Shown in pieces: positions 30,141 to 39,942 of a DNA stretch of 64,000 nt. Each line of letters starts with the position of its first letter. Position 1 is the stretch's first letter. The notes under the pieces are model-generated. The model worked only from the letters and a program-made list of their open reading frames with translations. It searched no databases and was not told the DNA's origin. Both the position numbers and the translations under genes were made by a program. The stretch lies in contig JAQUWE010000004.1 of assembly GCA_028693035.1 (NCBI GenBank), positions 9,660 through 73,659 on the forward strand, in the 5' to 3' direction. Source of the stretch: Bacilli bacterium. GTDB lineage: Bacteria; Bacillota_I; Bacilli_A; RF39; UBA660.

Positions 30141-30214
30141 GCGGATGTAGTTTAATGGTAGAACCTCAGCCTTCCAAGCTGACTACGTGGGTTCGATTCC
30201 CATCATCCGCTCCA
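30141..30214 (+). tRNA. tRNA-Gly (anticodon UCC), CCA encoded
   Basis: I folded the cloverleaf by hand. Acceptor stem GCGGATG/CATCCGC, D-stem GTTT/GAAC, anticodon stem TCAGC/GCTGA with loop CTTCCAA, and T-arm GTGGG-TTCGATT-CCCAT. Confidence 0.95.
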
Positions 30215-30255: not shown

Positions 30256-30380
30256 TTTATAAGGGATAAATCAACATTTTATCATGTTTTTTTCAATGCT
30301 ATCTTAGCCTTAAAAGTGCTTACTTTTGACAGAAACAAGTCCAAAAACAAGACCAAAATATATAAAAAGGAAAACAACGC

Positions 30381-31698: not shown

Positions 31699-32313
31699 TT
31701 AAATTTCAATGGTTTCTTCAATTTCTAATATTTTATAAGGAATACTAAAGTTTTTAAAATTATCATTCATATAATTTAAATCTGTTGGGTAAGCTTGATT
31801 ATCCATATGAACAGGCAAAACTAGTTTAGCCTCTAATTCTTTAGCAAACAATGAAGCCTCATACGAAGACATAGTTAAACCATATCCTGTAATTGGCATC
31901 GCTACTACATCCACTTTATAATTGTTATTAAAGCAAATCGTATCACTTGTAGCGTAGAGCCTTAATTTTCCATCATCAATTATATACCCTACATTTTCAA
32001 ATACTTCTTTCCCCTCTTTCAAGTTTGGATTATACCCATGAATGGCTTTAACGACCTCAATTTTAAAATCACCAAAATTTAAATAATCATTTTCTTTAAT
32101 AATATTAAATTTAATATTTGGAAATTCACTTTGCACTTCCTTTGTAGAATATATTGGTACATTTATGTTTTCCAAAATTTTTGCATTTATATGATCAGCA
32201 TGCTTATGGGTAATGAATACTATATCTGCTGTTTCCCAATCTCTCAAAAATTTTTCTTGATACTTTAATGTCCCTGGATCTATCAATACTTTTTTATTGT
32301 CCATTTCAATCAT
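31699..32313 (-). CDS. MBL-fold metallo-hydrolase (the reading frame and family N-terminus continue to 32349 without a canonical start)
   Basis: FITHKHADH (HxHxDH) motif. The in-frame upstream codons encode IIKITKYPQSCL, the usual family N-terminus, and begin at ATT/ATA. Confidence 0.75.
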   Translation of the reverse strand: MIEMDNKKVLIDPGTLKYQEKFLRDWETADIVFITHKHADHINAKILENINVPIYSTKEVQSEFPNIKFNIIKENDYLNFGDFKIEVVKAIHGYNPNLKEGKEVFENVGYIIDDGKLRLYATSDTICFNNNYKVDVVAMPITGYGLTMSSYEASLFAKELEAKLVLPVHMDNQAYPTDLNYMNDNFKNFSIPYKILEIEETIEI

Positions 32314-32456: not shown

Positions 32457-32810
32457 TTATAAACCCTGTCTCTTTAGAGTAAAAATCACGCAGGCCTGTT
32501 TATTTGACTCTTCTTCGGTATAATAACCACCTTCGTAAGTATCTTTAACAACTGCAGATACTGTAGGATACTGGTCTATAAAATCTTCCTTATAATATTT
32601 AGAATAACAATCAAACCAATTATCAAATACTTCTATATTTGTTACTGCAACAGTTACTTCATCATCAAGATTAGGTAATTTTTGAAACCGAATGGTATCC
32701 CCTATCTTAACCAATTTCCTTTTGTCATCATAAAGCCTATATTCTCTTTTTTTTCTATCTAATTTTAAATCTTCAAATTCTGATTGGTAGAGTTTCATAG
32801 TATGTTCCAT
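32457..32810 (-). CDS. ASCH (PUA-like) domain protein
   Basis: 117 aa with the pattern F..L....K..EYRLYD.KR..VKIGD.I.F, typical of ASCH. AAGGAGA lies 6 nt upstream of the ATG. Confidence 0.65.
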   Translation of the reverse strand: MEHTMKLYQSEFEDLKLDRKKREYRLYDDKRKLVKIGDTIRFQKLPNLDDEVTVAVTNIEVFDNWFDCYSKYYKEDFIDQYPTVSAVVKDTYEGGYYTEEESNKQACVIFTLKRQGL

Positions 32811-32961
32811 TTTATTTCTCCTTAACTAGTAATTTAATACTACATTTTTTTGAAAAAAATATTTGCTTATTATATATATATTGCAGGCATAGCTAGTATA
32901 ACATAAAACTATAAAAAATATAACATATGTGCTATAATTTCATTATATGGAGGGAATAAAT

Positions 32962-34287
32962 ATGAATATAAAAGAGGACGCAAAGCAATTTGCTATTAAT
33001 GCTCATAAAGGCCAAATAAGAAAAAATGAACCTGATAAACCAATGATTATGCATCCCATAAGTGTTGGCATGTTATTGGAAGAATATGGTTACAACGACA
33101 ATGTAGTTGCAGCTGGTTATTTACATGATGTTGTTGAGGATACAGAATACACTTTAGAAAATATTGAAAGAATATTTGGTAGTACTATCGCTGAACTTGT
33201 AAAAGGTGCATCGGAACCAGATAAATCATTATCTTGGAAAGAAAGAAAACAGCATACTATAGATGAAACTAAAGAATTATCTTTTGAAAATAAATTAGTT
33301 GTGTGTGCAGATAAAATAAATAATTTAGAAGATTTAATGTTAAAGTTTCAGAAAACTGGAATTAGGGATTTTTCACGTTTTAAGATGGGTGAAGAAGAAC
33401 AAAAATGGTATTATACTGGGGTATATGAAAGTCTTACTTTTGGTCAAGATAGCGAATTGCCAATTTTTTTGAGATTAAAGAATGTTTTAGATATTGTGTT
33501 TTACAATAAAAGAAACGAACAGTTGGAAGATATATTTTCGTCAGATCCAAATTATTACCATAAGTTAATCAGTCTACACTCTCAAAAAGTAGAACTACAA
33601 AAATTAAAAAAATTGTGTAGTTTACCTAAACCATTTGTTATTGAATTTTGTGGTACTCCACGAACTGGAAAAACCACTATATTAAACAATTTATATGTAT
33701 TTTTTAAAAAAGGTGGATTTTCCGTTAATATGATCGAGGAATTAACAACTTCAGATCATTATAAAAAGGTAGTATTACCAAAAATCCAACATATGCCAAC
33801 AGATAAATTAAATATAGCAATTATAAGAGAAGCTGAAAAACAACTTCGCCATGCTATATCAAAAAATGATGATATTATCCTCATTGATAGATCGTTAAAT
33901 GATAGGGTCATTTGGAATTACAGAAAATTTGTTCGTAACGATATGACAGAAGAACAATATAGACAAATTACAGAACAATATTCTACAGTTTCCAAAGAGT
34001 TAATAGATCTGTTAGTCATTGGATACACAGACGCCCAAACAGCCGTGAAAAGAGATTATATAAATAGTTTGGCCCTAGAAGAAAGTAGATTTTTAAATAT
34101 TGATAATATTCATGAATACAATAAAAATATGGAACTATCAATGAACGTTTTCAAAAAAAGTGTAAATAATATTTATAAGCTTGATACTACTGATATTTCA
34201 CCAAGAGATTCCTCAGTACTAATTGCTGAAAATATAATGCACATAATGAGAGAAAAATATATAAAAGCATTCAAAGATAGTATCTAA
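32962..34287 (+). CDS. Fusion protein: SpoT/RelA-type HD (alarmone-hydrolase-like) domain plus a C-terminal P-loop kinase-like domain
   Basis: N-terminal part: HKGQIRK..., MHPISV, YLHDVVEDT, FGSTIAELVKGASEP. C-terminal part: Walker A CGTPRTGKTT and Walker B-like IILIDRS. GGAGGGA lies 6 nt upstream of the ATG at 32962. Confidence 0.8.
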   Translation: MNIKEDAKQFAINAHKGQIRKNEPDKPMIMHPISVGMLLEEYGYNDNVVAAGYLHDVVEDTEYTLENIERIFGSTIAELVKGASEPDKSLSWKERKQHTIDETKELSFENKLVVCADKINNLEDLMLKFQKTGIRDFSRFKMGEEEQKWYYTGVYESLTFGQDSELPIFLRLKNVLDIVFYNKRNEQLEDIFSSDPNYYHKLISLHSQKVELQKLKKLCSLPKPFVIEFCGTPRTGKTTILNNLYVFFKKGGFSVNMIEELTTSDHYKKVVLPKIQHMPTDKLNIAIIREAEKQLRHAISKNDDIILIDRSLNDRVIWNYRKFVRNDMTEEQYRQITEQYSTVSKELIDLLVIGYTDAQTAVKRDYINSLALEESRFLNIDNIHEYNKNMELSMNVFKKSVNNIYKLDTTDISPRDSSVLIAENIMHIMREKYIKAFKDSI

Positions 34288-34346: not shown

Positions 34347-35324
34347 TTAAATGTTCCATTTTGGTGGATACATATAATCAATTTTTTCTTTTTTAACGCA
34401 ATATTTCTTTTTAATTTTAGTTCTATTAGACTTTAGACTAGGAACTGCCTGTCTACAATATTTATCTAATTCACAGAATATATTTTGACAATCAATAAGT
34501 TGTAAAGGTCTATTCCCAATTTTTTTAAAATCGAGATGTAATCTTTTAAATTCTTTGTCCTGATTTTCAAACATATAGAAAATAATATCTTCATTGGATT
34601 GGTTTCCCTTACTAGTAAAACACTTAGCAATTCCCCTTATTGAACCTGGACCTGCCACTGTAAACTCATCTTCTCCCCAGTTTACAACTTTACTATAATT
34701 GATATCAGTCACAAGCTGATATGCCATAAAGTTTCCTATTAAAGGATAAGACTTTATTAAAAGAAAAGCATCTTCCATATGCTTACACTTCATAATTTTA
34801 TTCTGCACCTTATCTATAACAAACATTTTTTCTAAAAGAGCCAAATGATTTTGATGCTTTCTATCGTATCCAAAAGCTTTATTAGCGCAACTTATATAAG
34901 CATCACTATATATTTTTATGCCTTCTTTTAGTGCACTTTCTAAAATGTTTGAGTAAACATTTTTATCAAAATTTTCTAAGGTAATCTCCCCTATATTTTT
35001 TTCTAATAATTCCCATGTAGATTCTTTATTAAATAGTTTAAAAAGAATAATTCTAAAAAGAATACTCTCATCAGGGTATTTTTTTCCATTGTATATGACA
35101 TTTTTAAGCAAGTATTGACTCACTCTATCGTTCACTCTATAGCTATTACAAAACTTATACTCTTGCAGTATCGGATCTTCTGTCCATGGGCCTCTTTCTC
35201 CATTATCCTTTTTTACGAAGATATTTTGTCTTTCAGCAGCAAAGTACCAATATAGATCATAAATTTCTTGTCGCTTTCTAAAATTTTCAACCACTGTACA
35301 TCTACCTTTCTTATAATTTTTCAT
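34347..35324 (-). CDS. Protein resembling the 5-hmdU DNA kinase helical / aGPT-pyrophosphorylase family of phage thymidine hypermodification (tentative)
   Basis: Motifs recalled from that family: ERQNIF...GERGPWTEDPILQEYKFCNSYRVNDRVSQ, and later GNFMAYQLVTDINYS...AGPGSIRG. No P-loop is present. The ORF itself is solid at 325 aa. Confidence 0.45.
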   Translation of the reverse strand: MKNYKKGRCTVVENFRKRQEIYDLYWYFAAERQNIFVKKDNGERGPWTEDPILQEYKFCNSYRVNDRVSQYLLKNVIYNGKKYPDESILFRIILFKLFNKESTWELLEKNIGEITLENFDKNVYSNILESALKEGIKIYSDAYISCANKAFGYDRKHQNHLALLEKMFVIDKVQNKIMKCKHMEDAFLLIKSYPLIGNFMAYQLVTDINYSKVVNWGEDEFTVAGPGSIRGIAKCFTSKGNQSNEDIIFYMFENQDKEFKRLHLDFKKIGNRPLQLIDCQNIFCELDKYCRQAVPSLKSNRTKIKKKYCVKKEKIDYMYPPKWNI

Positions 35325-35610
35325 TTATTATAACATCATGCTTATATTTTTTCACTCATTTTATCATTGTTTCTTCATCTTATATTTTATCTTTGAATCT
35401 ACTCTGTATGTTTTCTCTATAATACTATAAAGGAATGCCTAAACAGAAAGTAAAAATTGTATATATGTGATTTCAAAGTAGGTTCTTAGCTTTCCAATAT
35501 TGCTTTTTCCAACATATTATATATTGAAAAGAAAAGGAATCTGTAAAAGCTTAACTATAAGTACAACACCTTCTTTATCCTTTTCAATATGACAAGAAAG
35601 GAGTATATAA

Positions 35611-36474
35611 ATGAACAATTACGAAAAAGCACTACAAAAAATTAAACACGACGAAAAATGTAAACCAAAAGGTATGTATTATATAGGCGCAGCAGGTCCT
35701 ACGGGTCCAACAGGTCCACCTGGACCAGCTGGAGGTCCTACGGGTCCGACAGGTCCAACCGGGCCAACGGGGCCAACCGGGCCAACCGGGCCAACGGGAC
35801 CAACTGGGCCTGGCGGTCTTCTTGGTGCAACGGGTCCAACCGGGCCAACGGGACCAACCGGACCTGACGGGCTTCTTGGTGCAACAGGACCAACCGGACC
35901 AACTGGACCTGACGGGCTTCTTGGCGCAACAGGACCAACGGGGCCAACGGGTCCAGCAGGCGTTGATGGCATTATAGGTCCAACAGGTCCAACCGGACCA
36001 ACTGGACCTGACGGGCTTCTTGGCGCAACGGGTCCAACGGGGCCAACGGGCCCAACAGGACCAGCTGCTCTTGGAGCTCTTGAAGTTCAATTGCAAACTG
36101 GTGCATTTCAGGAAATTACTGATGCTTCTGCAATAGCTTTCAACACGGTTATTACGAATAATGCACCTAATATTACTTATGATACAACAACAGGTATTTT
36201 CACAATTACTACACCCGGACTATATTATATCAACTGGTGGGTCGCTGCCGATTCAGCACCAGTGGTAAATACTATCAATTTAGCAATCGCAACATCTGCC
36301 GGTCAAAACATTCAGGCATCATCAAATATTGCTGCACTTAATTTTAGCGGAAATGCTTTATTAAATGTTACAACTGCTCCACTAACTTTCTCATTAGTCA
36401 ATCAAAGTGGCGGCTCAATATTCATCGGAGAATATCTAGCACAAGCTGATTTAACTGTTATCCAGCTTATATAA
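35611..36474 (+). CDS. Collagen-like triple-helix repeat protein with a globular C-terminal domain (BclA-like architecture)
   Basis: About 125 aa of G-X-Y triplets, mostly GPT, followed by a domain of about 135 aa rich in beta-strand-type sequence. GAAAGGAG lies 7 nt upstream of the ATG. Confidence 0.85.
35695..36066 (+). repeat. GC-rich 9-bp-periodic (GGnCCnACn) coding repeat with higher-order [14 protein letters not shown](D) units
   Basis: Read directly from the sequence. All six frames are open here, which generates the spurious antisense ORFs in the track. Confidence 0.9.
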
Positions 36475-37721: not shown

Positions 37722-37757
37722 ACTTATAAAAGTACCTATACTTTATAAGTTTTTTTA
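37722..37757. terminator. Hairpin terminator between the small ORF and the lysin gene
   Basis: acttataaaagta / tactttataagt (12 bp with one bulge) and a ccta loop, followed by a T-run. Confidence 0.65.
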
Positions 37758-38756
37758 TTTTATAACCAAAATTTGTCCTGGATAAATTACATTAGGATTA
37801 CTGCCAATCGTTTTACGATTTTTTTCATATAACGTTTTCCAACTCATTCCATATTTGGCTGCGATAGAACTTAAGTTATCTCCCTTTTGTACCTTATAAG
37901 TAACAGAACTAGATTGACTACTGCTATTTGGGATTTTTAAAATTTGTCCTACTTGTATTTTATTGGGATCAGCAATGCTATTTGCACTTGCTATTTCCTT
38001 GTAACGTGTCCCATTTCCATAAAATTTTTGGGCAATGGTCCACAAACTATCTCCCTTTTGTACTTTATATGTGACATCGCTGGGAGTTGGTGTTGGGGTA
38101 GGTGTAGGCTCTGGTTCTACACGAGGACTGTCTGTATAATGATTCAATCCTTGTGAAACAATAAGTTCATGATAATCTTTATAAGCAATGTTCATGTCGA
38201 CGTCACCCGTAATTCCATTGACCCTACCTGTACTACTATACTGCCATATTCCAAATGGTTTTTCATATGTAGGCCTACTAGCCCACTGTGCAAGCCATTT
38301 GTCATAAGAATTTAATTCTGGACTATTTAAGATGGTACGGAACCAATGTAAGTTTGCATAGATCATCGCATAATATCCGTTTTCTTCAAGTGTCTGACAA
38401 AAAGTGGTACAAATATCTGTATAGGTTTGATTAGAGGCACCACCATGTGCTTCTTTCCAACCATCTCCATCTTCCATGTCAATCACAATAGGATAAGTTG
38501 GCTTATAGCCTTTAATACTATTTAACATACCGGCTACTTCTTGTTTGGCTTCTTCTACATTTAAAGCATATGAATAGTGGTAAAAACCATAAGGAATACC
38601 ATAACGTTCACAGGCATCCGCATAGGTTCTAAACATCTTATCTTCATGATAATAGCCATACCCAGAACGTATGATTACAAAATCTACTTGTTCTTTTACT
38701 TTAGAAAAGTCTATATTTCCTTGATAATAAGAAATATCAATTCCACGTTTTTCGAT
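37755..38756 (-). CDS. GH25 muramidase with two C-terminal LysM domains and no signal peptide (endolysin-like); apparent ATC start
   Basis: The conserved GH25 N-terminus RGIDISYYQGNIDF lies upstream of the first ATG (38636), in frame. AGGAGG sits 6 nt upstream of ATC at 38756. A PTPTPTPTP linker is followed by two YKVQKGD...LysM repeats. Confidence 0.75.
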   Translation of the reverse strand: MEKRGIDISYYQGNIDFSKVKEQVDFVIIRSGYGYYHEDKMFRTYADACERYGIPYGFYHYSYALNVEEAKQEVAGMLNSIKGYKPTYPIVIDMEDGDGWKEAHGGASNQTYTDICTTFCQTLEENGYYAMIYANLHWFRTILNSPELNSYDKWLAQWASRPTYEKPFGIWQYSSTGRVNGITGDVDMNIAYKDYHELIVSQGLNHYTDSPRVEPEPTPTPTPTPSDVTYKVQKGDSLWTIAQKFYGNGTRYKEIASANSIADPNKIQVGQILKIPNSSSQSSSVTYKVQKGDNLSSIAAKYGMSWKTLYEKNRKTIGSNPNVIYPGQILVIK

Positions 38757-39615: not shown

Positions 39616-39900
39616 TTACATTAAATATTTCTTTATATCCACATATCCATTTTCTTTAAATGATATACCTTCTTGCAGCAAAAGTTCTTTTTGTGCATAA
39701 TAACCAGGTGCCAATCTGCCTATATGATTCACAACCCTATGACAAGGGTATTCTCCATAATGGGAGGCCATCTTCAAGGCTTTTCCTACCATTCTAGGAC
39801 CACAGCCAACCAAATAAGCAATTTGTCCATAAGTAGCGACTTTCCCTTTTGGTATCTCTGATACTGTTTCATAAATTCGATACAAAACATCTTCATTCAT
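39616..39900 (-). CDS. MGMT-family DNA-binding domain protein with the PCHRV active-site motif
   Basis: IPKGKVATYGQIA...YPCHRVV. This is a short, single-domain form; an alternative GTG start is at 39909. Confidence 0.8.
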   Translation of the reverse strand: MNEDVLYRIYETVSEIPKGKVATYGQIAYLVGCGPRMVGKALKMASHYGEYPCHRVVNHIGRLAPGYYAQKELLLQEGISFKENGYVDIKKYLM

Positions 39901-39942
39901 TTTTACCACACCATTATTTCTATATTATAAAAAAAGAAGCAA

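Follow-up and report, generated by a model that had tools for sequence, protein, structure and literature searches.

The gene described here lies on the reverse strand at positions 34347..35324 of a 64,000-nucleotide stretch of DNA (hereafter the window, 64 kb) from a Bacilli bacterium of the UBA660 lineage (contig JAQUWE010000004.1, positions 9,660 to 73,659). As called, the open reading frame (ORF) encodes a stand-alone protein of 325 amino acids (aa), which the ORF call, a Pfam match and fold matches identify as a member of the HMUDK_hel family (PF18723). The Pfam match covers profile positions 2-280 of 281 with E = 1.8e-105 and a score of 352.8 bits (cutoff 25), which is far beyond chance and makes the protein a full-length member of the family. 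A first-pass annotation of the stretch had placed it in the HMUDK_hel or aGPT-Pplase-like (alpha-glutamyl/putrescinyl-thymine pyrophosphorylase-like) family of phage thymidine hypermodification because of two sequence motifs. Both motifs are present, one as AERQNIFVKKDNGERGPWTEDPILQEYKFCNSYRVNDRVSQ at residues 30-70 and the other as GNFMAYQLVTDINY...AGPGSIRG at residues 197-231, and the placement is borne out by the PF18723 match, by homologues in phages and by the predicted fold. Of the Pfam families that had been proposed, HMUDK_hel was recovered, whereas neither Pplase1 nor PF18724 (Pplase2) matched at E <= 0.01. The family assignment is not new, since an identical protein is already present in NCBI as 'putative DNA base hypermodification protein [Bacilli bacterium]' (P0001), giving the same call. 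In Pfam the protein carries PF18723 alone, with no detected cofactor-binding domain, and a kinase domain of type PF18748 or PF18747 is neither fused to it nor adjacent. PHROG 2396, a group of unknown function, also matched (E = 1e-56), while scans with the NCBIfam and PADLOC profiles returned zero matches. Searches of PDB sequences gave no match with the single protein and spurious matches to aquaporins with the family profile.

A structural model was built with AlphaFold2 from 31 close homologues (mean pLDDT 71, pTM 0.73) and is all-helical. Among the predicted viral structures in BFVD, the best match was to the 5-hydroxymethyldeoxyuridine (5-hmdU) DNA kinase of phage SP10 (E = 1.6e-9, template modelling (TM) score 0.59), and five other HMUDK_hel proteins matched the fold at E <= 1e-5. 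Two proteins named Pplase1 were also matched (E = 5e-6 and 7e-4), although Pplase1 is missing from the Pfam matches of the window protein, and PF18723 fits the protein better than does this sister family, aGPT-Pplase clade 1. The match to a clade 2 "amino acid:DNA transferase" was weak (E = 0.8, probability 0.82). Nothing in the PDB was significant, the top of the list being occupied by helix-hairpin-helix (HhH) DNA glycosylases (MjOgg, AGOG, Mag2 and AlkA) and by 8z2n, with E values of 0.2-1 and TM scores of 0.33-0.48; for 8z2n, the glycinyltransferase gp46 of phage PaMx11, Foldseek gave a probability of 0.90 and E = 0.24. The HhH-GPD glycosylases (Ogg, AGOG, AlkA, Mag) have an all-helical fold and an HhH-like hairpin in common with the window protein, but the fold scores are non-significant (best E = 0.2), there is no HhH-GPD match in Pfam and the Cys-Glu-Lys motif described below is no glycosylase signature. 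PHROG 800, labelled 'terminase small subunit', matched through a C-terminal HMUDK_hel-like region. The same label is attached to the 5-hmdU DNA kinase of phage Ab18 (ORF12, L083 5405-5974), and it is probably a propagated mis-annotation of fusions between kinases and HMUDK_hel.

Conservation was assessed in an alignment of 54 sequences from across the PF18723 family, in which phage members and the member from the bacterial anti-phage system DS-4 (see below) were included. R32, F58, R63, D66, D207, G225, G227, G231, E285 and K288 were invariant in this alignment and all are present in the window protein. An N-terminal conserved block at residues 31-70 (reverse strand, 35115..35234; ER..IF, PWT.DPIL, YKF.N.YR..DR.SQ) holds R32, F58, R63 and D66, while D207 and the three invariant glycines are located in an HhH-like hairpin and Gly-rich loop at residues 194-231 (reverse strand, 34632..34745; PLIGNFMAYQLVTD...AGPGSIRG). 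Conservation and an alignment with Cys247 of PaMx11 gp46 point to F-C284-E285-L-D-K288-Y (reverse strand, 34458..34478) as a candidate active-site motif. The C284 column contains cysteine in 53 of the 54 sequences, and the positions of E285 and K288 are occupied by Glu and Lys, respectively, in all 54.

The link to gp46 comes from profile-profile comparisons, in which the family was compared to a 38-sequence alignment of PF18724 using hhalign with default and low-mact settings and with reversed sequences as controls. HMUDK_hel matched PF18724 with E = 2.7e-4 and a probability of 42% over 170-246 aligned columns, as compared to E = 0.6-0.8 for the reversed controls. With both settings C284 was aligned with the invariant Cys247 of gp46, although the two families are only remotely homologous and confidence in this part of the model is low. 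In the crystal structure of gp46, Cys247 is the nucleophile on C6 of a flipped pyrimidine (PMC11472151), and the related aGPT-Pplase clade 2 enzymes M6 gp51 and ViI gp247 transfer amino acids onto 5-phosphomethyl-deoxyuridine with an essential Cys and a neighbouring Glu (PMC8989533). The comparison also paired R272 with R235 of gp46, and the HhH-like segment with the Pplase2 segment FGPWIGFKVAD, which bears the DNA-wedging Trp146 (PMC11472151). The clade 2 proteins (M6 gp51, ViI gp247 and PaMx11 gp46/PUGT, PDB 8z2n) are therefore remote homologues with which the catalytic Cys column, one invariant Arg and the HhH-like segment can be aligned. They differ from the window protein in several respects: the identity is ~14%, there is no PF18724 match within the Pfam threshold, the Glu-Thr pair that coordinates the metal in Pplase2 (PMC13458397) is replaced by Gln280-Asn281, and the residue following the catalytic-column Cys is an invariant Glu in HMUDK_hel but a Lys in clade 2. 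The near-universal Cys-Glu-x-x-Lys, with its Cys aligned to the catalytic Cys247, suggests an enzyme rather than a passive helical domain. By analogy with Pplase2, the PF18723 proteins would use Cys-to-C6 pyrimidine chemistry and would not be mere helical DNA-binding modules.

A tblastn search of 50,697 phage records identified 489 with a homologue, at 24-31% identity. They fall precisely in the thymidine-hypermodifying groups, namely the ViI-like, M6/Yuavirus-like, Vibrio, Microbacterium and SPO1-like Bacillus phages. The ViI homologue is Vi01_130c (orf00160, gp160), located directly 3' of a MazG-like gene. In a Yuavirus the homologue is found between the P-loop 5-hmdU DNA kinase and the NMAD gene, which is the position of M6 gp55, in a cluster that also encodes a pyridoxal phosphate (PLP) enzyme, a radical SAM (rSAM) enzyme, a thymidylate synthase-like (TS-like) protein and a 5'-deoxynucleotidase. 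In Ab18 the start of the homologue overlaps the stop of the kinase gene, and in SBSphiC the homologue is fused to the kinase domain PF18748. Hidden Markov model matches assign each of these four to PF18723. The phage proteins (ViI gp160, the M6 gp55 type, PhiW-14 C9DG43 and the C-terminal half of the SP10/SBSphiC 5-hmdU DNA kinase) thus belong to the same full-length Pfam family as the window protein, have the same fold and share its invariant residues, including C-E-x-x-K. They differ in being fused or translationally coupled to the 5-hmdU DNA kinase, whereas the window protein is stand-alone, and in sitting with genes for a TS-like hydroxymethylase, Pplase2, NMAD, and PLP/rSAM or FAD/acetyltransferase enzymes, none of which accompanies it within 64 kb. 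No homologue of the 5-HMUDK kinase, a Tmk-type kinase, a TS-like enzyme, NMAD, MazG/MazG_C, the PLP enzyme, Pplase2 or an rSAM/SPASM protein was found in the window. As for the contribution of these proteins to phage hypermodification, M6 gp55 can be omitted from the in vitro reaction and ViI gp160 is not among the components demonstrated as required (PMC8989533).

In a scan of one genome per GTDB species we identified 145 relatives, and the loci of the best 80 of the 145 (72-80% identity) were analysed. These 80 orthologues come from uncultured gut Bacilli, deposited as metagenome-assembled genomes (MAGs) labelled "Tenericutes" or "Clostridium sp. CAG", and overall the gene is kept, by strong purifying selection, in more than 100 species of such bacteria at 72-87% identity. 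The flanking genes are mostly those for tRNA synthetases, NusG, ABC transporters and the like. Scanned together against Pfam, 137 other flanking genes yielded 133 different families, none of them in more than four loci, and a conserved neighbourhood hidden at the domain level was rejected on these grounds. De novo clustering of the neighbours recovered a sole recurrent partner, an rSAM/SPASM gene of ~334 aa located directly upstream on the same strand in 38 of the 80 loci (34 of the 71 with enough upstream sequence). The two genes are usually separated by a 4-nt gap, or overlap (for example L001 1544-2662; L084-L109). When a metagenome scan was performed with the rSAM protein, HMUDK_hel was the next gene in all 24 close relatives for which downstream sequence was available. 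Of the two, it is therefore the rSAM gene that is the dependent one. Its product is a generic SPASM-type enzyme without a specific NCBIfam equivalog, and an identification with the rSAM of the phage M6 gp53 type was rejected because there is no similarity. The HMUDK_hel half of this cassette is orthologous to the window protein (~77% identity), but the window copy is without rSAM: a tblastn search of the window with the rSAM protein gave nothing, and a divergent collagen-like gene is situated upstream instead. The HMUDK_hel gene is an autonomous single-gene unit with no conserved neighbour save the optional rSAM/SPASM partner, and the genes beside it in the window have no relation to it.

Two side observations were made at these loci. 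In L056 and L061 the next gene (+1), on the opposite strand, encodes an Ogg-type 8-oxoguanine DNA glycosylase (OGG_N + HhH-GPD), which at 2 of 80 loci is probably a coincidence. A genome of the same lineage encodes a 385-aa protein of the thymidylate synthase family with insertions and a C-terminal extension of ~95 aa (L119 11013-12170); considered as a candidate hydroxymethylase, it passes one ThyA equivalog cutoff and shows only 25-27% identity to the TS-like enzymes of phages and DS-4. No TS gene was found near any HMUDK_hel locus.

Selective constraint was estimated from the ratio of nonsynonymous to synonymous substitution frequencies (dN/dS). The median across orthologue pairs was 0.095 for HMUDK_hel and 0.21 for the rSAM partner. 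The values were nearly the same for solo copies (0.096) and for copies linked to rSAM (0.093), indicating that the solo copies are functional. Copies with and without rSAM are interspersed in the tree, where the window copy is placed on a deep branch together with other solo copies. For pairs involving the window copy, the dS values were 1.5-2.2, saturated like those for IscU and SpoVS, while dN was below that of IscU, consistent with vertical descent under strong constraint. Comparisons among L007, L031 and L047 yielded dS values clearly below those for IscU, which hints at lateral exchange among these three. Genes for a serine recombinase, ORF6N, a restriction endonuclease-like protein or similar adjoin the rSAM-linked cassettes in 18 of 38 cases, as compared to 7 of the 42 loci that have no rSAM gene next to HMUDK_hel (p = 0.004, Fisher test), and two MAGs contain two cassette loci each (L027/L045 and L042/L044).

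In bacteria generally, an exhaustive HMMER search recovered the PF18723 family in 4,385 clusters at 50% identity (E <= 1e-3), many of them cellular, and the suggestion that such a gene is notable in a bacterium was thus overstated. The nearest relatives outside the clade are ~50% identical and show three types of fusion, to an N-terminal Tmk-like P-loop kinase, to a C-terminal MazG + MazG_C and to an N-terminal glycosyltransferase. The Tmk-like domains carry the motif EGxDGxGKTT (P0125, P0127). The gene for one of them (P0125) is located in what is, from its gene content, a clear defence island (L121 2594-13083), in the order type I restriction subunit, DCD (dCTP-deaminase-like), ImmA-like peptidase, [Tmk-HMUDK_hel][MazG-MazG_C], an 876-aa AAA_15 ATPase and a metallophosphatase. 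The HMUDK_hel domain of the Tmk-HMUDK_hel + MazG-MazG_C operons is ~50% identical to the window protein, which is itself unfused and located among housekeeping genes. A further member occurs in DS-4 ('NTTI'), an anti-phage system of E. coli that stems from DefensePredictor and was validated by DeWeirdt et al. 2026 (PMC13092281). DS-4 is an operon of five genes, for a TS-like protein, a small P-loop kinase, a 340-aa "putative DNA base hypermodification protein", a TIR protein and Nmad2. In that paper aGPT-Pplase, MazG and MazG-C are also listed among the predicted defence domains (PMC13092281). The HMUDK_hel protein of DS-4 is a stand-alone, chromosomally encoded PF18723 protein with the same motifs and 29% identity to the window protein (E = 5e-30). 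A search of the window for three of its partner types (TS-like, P-loop kinase and NMAD) found none of them; the TIR gene was not searched for.

The start of the window gene should probably be moved. The only good promoter-like site is a sigma-70-like candidate on the reverse strand at 35327..35355 (GTGAAA, a 17-nt spacer and an extended -10 TGtTATAAT; 10 of 12 matches, TG present), although promoter-like sites in this AT-rich region are not enriched relative to shuffled sequences and the candidate is suggestive at most. The extended -10 ends 3 nt short of the annotated ATG, a Shine-Dalgarno-like (SD-like) sequence GAAAGGTAG (35310-35302, reverse strand) precedes an in-frame GTG (35294, codon 11) by 7 nt, the orthologues are mostly 311-314 aa long and residues 1-11 have pLDDT values < 50 in the model. 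These features suggest that the real product is probably a protein of 315 aa encoded at 34347..35294 and initiated at the GTG.

Beyond the 3' end of the gene lie the neighbours with which it had been proposed to form a module for base modification, sensing of modified DNA or defence against phages. A convergent gene at 32947-34287 (forward strand) encodes a fusion of HD_4 (RelA/SpoT-type HD) and a P-loop domain (AAA_28-like), and a metallo-beta-lactamase (MBL) fold hydrolase is encoded at 31699-32313 (reverse strand); both identifications agree with the ORF calls and Pfam. Between them, the gene at 32457-32810 (reverse strand) is an ASCH-like candidate, a label with which a PHROG match to 'RNA-binding protein' (E = 6.6e-16) is compatible but for which Pfam gives no match at E <= 0.01. 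When 16 window proteins were searched with tblastn against the 80 orthologous loci, the HD/P-loop, ASCH-like and MBL genes were linked to HMUDK_hel in none of them, and the module was rejected. The HD/P-loop protein is itself conserved in the lineage (60-81% identity, in forms of 445 aa and 652 aa), and its orthologues in three other genomes had no HMUDK_hel, ASCH or MBL gene nearby. In other genomes it is often found near genes for a reverse transcriptase of the group-II-intron/retron type (RVT_1) or for Fic proteins. The possibility that it represents a split-off 5-HMUDK was also rejected, as only the Walker A P-loop is shared with the kinases of the Tmk fusions, of the PF18748-type phage proteins and of DS-4.

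The HMUDK_hel gene is located near SpoVS or IscU in five genomes, that of the window included. In L007 it is ~1.8 kb from SpoVS, whereas in the window the distance is 4.4 kb with four genes of the proposed module in between (TM399, MBL, ASCH-like and HD/P-loop); since these are lacking between the two genes in L007, they look like variable filler beside a tRNA gene. This single tRNA-Gly(TCC) gene (30141-30214, forward strand) marks the edge of the four-gene segment, which is bracketed by an 18-nt AT-rich direct repeat with 89% identity (30350-30367 / 34249-34266). The repeat is probably a chance match, as no integrase is present. The description of the region as an island is consequently weak: it has the nearby tRNA-Gly but no integrase and no convincing att repeats. 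A prophage or viral origin was likewise rejected for the clade, since no close relatives were found on the viral contigs of IMG/VR and the window has neither an integrase nor an att site, in agreement with a gene on a cellular chromosome. The absence of a visible hydroxymethylase, also remarked upon in the first-pass annotation, was confirmed: neither the window nor any of the 80 orthologous loci holds a TS-family gene. What can be retained of the anti-phage proposal is that a defence-type role is plausible for the family, given the DS-4 homologue and the relatives in defence islands, whereas a module with the window neighbours is unsupported.

On the other side of the gene, the divergent collagen-like protein (35611-36474, forward strand) carries extended runs of GPT triplets, followed at the C-terminus by a C1q/BclA-like domain, an architecture of the exosporium BclA type. 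Its repeats yield large tandem families in the DNA. L007 and L025 likewise have collagen-like genes close to the orthologue. Further along, in the variable stretch between HMUDK_hel and frr, is a gene for a GH25 muramidase with two LysM domains (37755-38636, reverse strand), with no phage structural genes alongside. Downstream of the muramidase gene, a small ORF (39616-39909, reverse strand) is an MGMT/ATL-like candidate, as judged from reading the sequence alone.

The explanation that we favour, with a probability of roughly 0.4, is that the gene encodes a self-sufficient PF18723 enzyme that uses Cys284 chemistry on a flipped pyrimidine and serves as a one-gene conflict or surveillance function against foreign DNA. 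The all-helical, HhH-glycosylase-like fold would flip a pyrimidine from DNA; the likeliest target is a uracil or thymine substituted at C5, for example a base of the 5-hydroxymethyluracil (5-hmU) type. Cys284, aided by Glu285 and Lys288, would then attack C6 of the ring and thereby activate chemistry at the C5 substituent, as has been demonstrated for the distant homologue aGPT-Pplase2 in M6 gp51 (PMC8989533) and for Cys247 of PaMx11 gp46 (PMC11472151). In the weakest step of the argument, the substrate would be phage DNA with C5-modified thymidine or with intermediates of the modification, and the foreign base might be trapped covalently, stripped or mis-decorated. The role would thus be akin to that of the multi-gene DS-4 rather than one in hypermodifying the DNA of the host. 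A conflict-related role is suggested by DS-4, by the relatives in defence islands and by the mobile-element context of the rSAM-linked cassettes.

Several points weigh against this explanation. We know of no PF18723 protein with a known biochemical activity, and the link to Pplase2 is remote both in sequence (hhalign probability 42%) and in structure (Foldseek E = 0.24 to 8z2n). The chemistry may differ from that of Pplase2, given the Gln-Asn in place of the Glu-Thr ligands, and the structural model is of intermediate quality (pLDDT 71), with residues ~276-280 poorly modelled. The window protein has no PADLOC match, and its gene is surrounded by housekeeping genes, changes at a slower pace than IscU and is apparently vertically inherited, a pattern that a housekeeping function would explain no less well than defence. 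The partners in the bacterial fusions, a Tmk-like kinase and MazG, act on free nucleotides, so that the substrate could be a nucleotide. Finally, M6 gp55 and ViI gp160 are dispensable for hypermodification in vitro (PMC8989533).

A first rival is a housekeeping role, in which the enzyme would act on the cell's own DNA (or RNA), for example removing or processing oxidised thymine (5-hmU) or installing a native C5-pyrimidine mark, sometimes together with the rSAM/SPASM protein, as a core gene of a lineage with reduced genomes. Overall we hold this to be somewhat unlikely, but for the slowly evolving solo copy of the window it is nearly as good as the conflict role. The identity of 72-87% across more than 100 species, the dN/dS of ~0.095 with dN below that of IscU, the saturation of dS in window pairs as in neighbouring housekeeping genes, which fits vertical descent, and flanks dominated by tRNA synthetases, NusG and ABC transporters all speak for such a role; so do the lack of close relatives on viral contigs and the organisation as a single-gene unit, as for many DNA glycosylases, combined with a glycosylase-like fold. 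On the other hand, a housekeeping role is known for none of the family's members, and the relatives are found in phage hypermodification clusters, in defence islands and in the validated DS-4. The recombinases and ORF6N adjoining the rSAM-linked cassettes, the two MAGs with two cassette loci each, and the dS values below those for IscU among L007, L031 and L047, which hint at lateral exchange, also count against it. A bolder variant holds that the protein installs or remodels C5-modified thymine or uracil in the DNA of these strictly anaerobic gut Bacilli themselves: in half of the lineage the methyl group of thymine would be functionalised by the rSAM/SPASM enzyme in a reaction that needs no oxygen, replacing the hydroxymethylase and kinase route of the phages, and the Cys284 enzyme would transfer the group. 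We consider this a long shot; if true, it would represent the first case of a native pathway for thymidine hypermodification in a cellular genome.

The fusions and couplings to kinases in phages and bacteria can alternatively be read as evidence for a non-catalytic specificity module that recognises or flips a modified base, as the Pfam name ('helical domain of 5-hmdU DNA kinase') was originally understood, and delivers it to partners encoded at other sites, for example a kinase, MazG or rSAM. The in vitro chemistry of M6 and ViI, which runs without HMUDK_hel (PMC8989533), and the lack of a cofactor-binding domain in Pfam are in line with this idea. Yet the Cys-Glu-x-x-Lys motif and several invariant Arg and Asp residues are kept in very distant members, a pattern characteristic of active sites, the Cys is matched in the alignment to one with a proven catalytic function, and solo copies with no partner are equally constrained, and we therefore find this reading doubtful. 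The same fusions, here to a bona fide Tmk-like domain and to MazG/MazG_C, together with the MazG-like gene directly upstream of ViI gp160 and the TS-like and 5'-deoxynucleotidase genes in the phage clusters, would also be expected if the substrate were a free pyrimidine nucleotide (dUMP, dTMP, a 5-hmdUMP-type nucleotide or triphosphates) rather than DNA, the enzyme shaping the pool in salvage, detoxification or starvation of phages. This is improbable considering that the HhH glycosylases and Pplase2, to which the fold is related, flip bases in DNA, that the HhH-like hairpin and Gly-rich loop are conserved and that the characterised kinase partners phosphorylate 5-hmdU in DNA and not nucleotides (PMC8989533). 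Most improbable of all is the module of the first-pass annotation, in which the host would modify or sense bases, or defend itself, with the products of the window neighbours, the HD/P-loop protein acting as a split-off kinase. The genes are physically adjacent, in other settings P-loop kinases are frequent fusion or coupling partners of HMUDK_hel, and HD phosphohydrolases are found in phage clusters and near a few orthologues. However, synteny has already largely refuted it: these neighbours accompany 0 of 80 orthologous loci, the HD/P-loop orthologues in the three other genomes lack the remaining genes, and L007 has the gene close to SpoVS without the four intervening genes. The kinase domain, moreover, has Walker A alone in common with the Tmk-type, PF18748-type and DS-4 kinases, and the two genes are convergent and so not co-transcribed.

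To conclude, the family call was correct, the module was wrong and the locus does not amount to a new system. Already known were the family, its setting in phages and its occurrence in bacteria, where one member belongs to a validated defence system. What is new is the solo clade, widespread in the lineage without partner genes, the rSAM/SPASM gene that accompanies roughly half of the orthologues as a dependent partner, and the argument, suggested by sequence comparison, that the "helical domain" holds an active site corresponding to the one in Pplase2. The PF18723 family is large and central to the thymidine hypermodification clusters of phages and to at least one validated bacterial defence system, and the clade described here represents a minimal case for the function of the domain: one gene with no obligatory partners, under strong selection and with a candidate active site of Cys284, Glu285 and Lys288. 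If borne out, the activity could yield a new reagent to recognise or derivatise modified pyrimidines in DNA. If the Cys-to-C6 chemistry is true, the 'helical domain' would be reclassified as an enzyme, which would help explain DS-4 and the predicted defence systems linked to MazG and Tmk.

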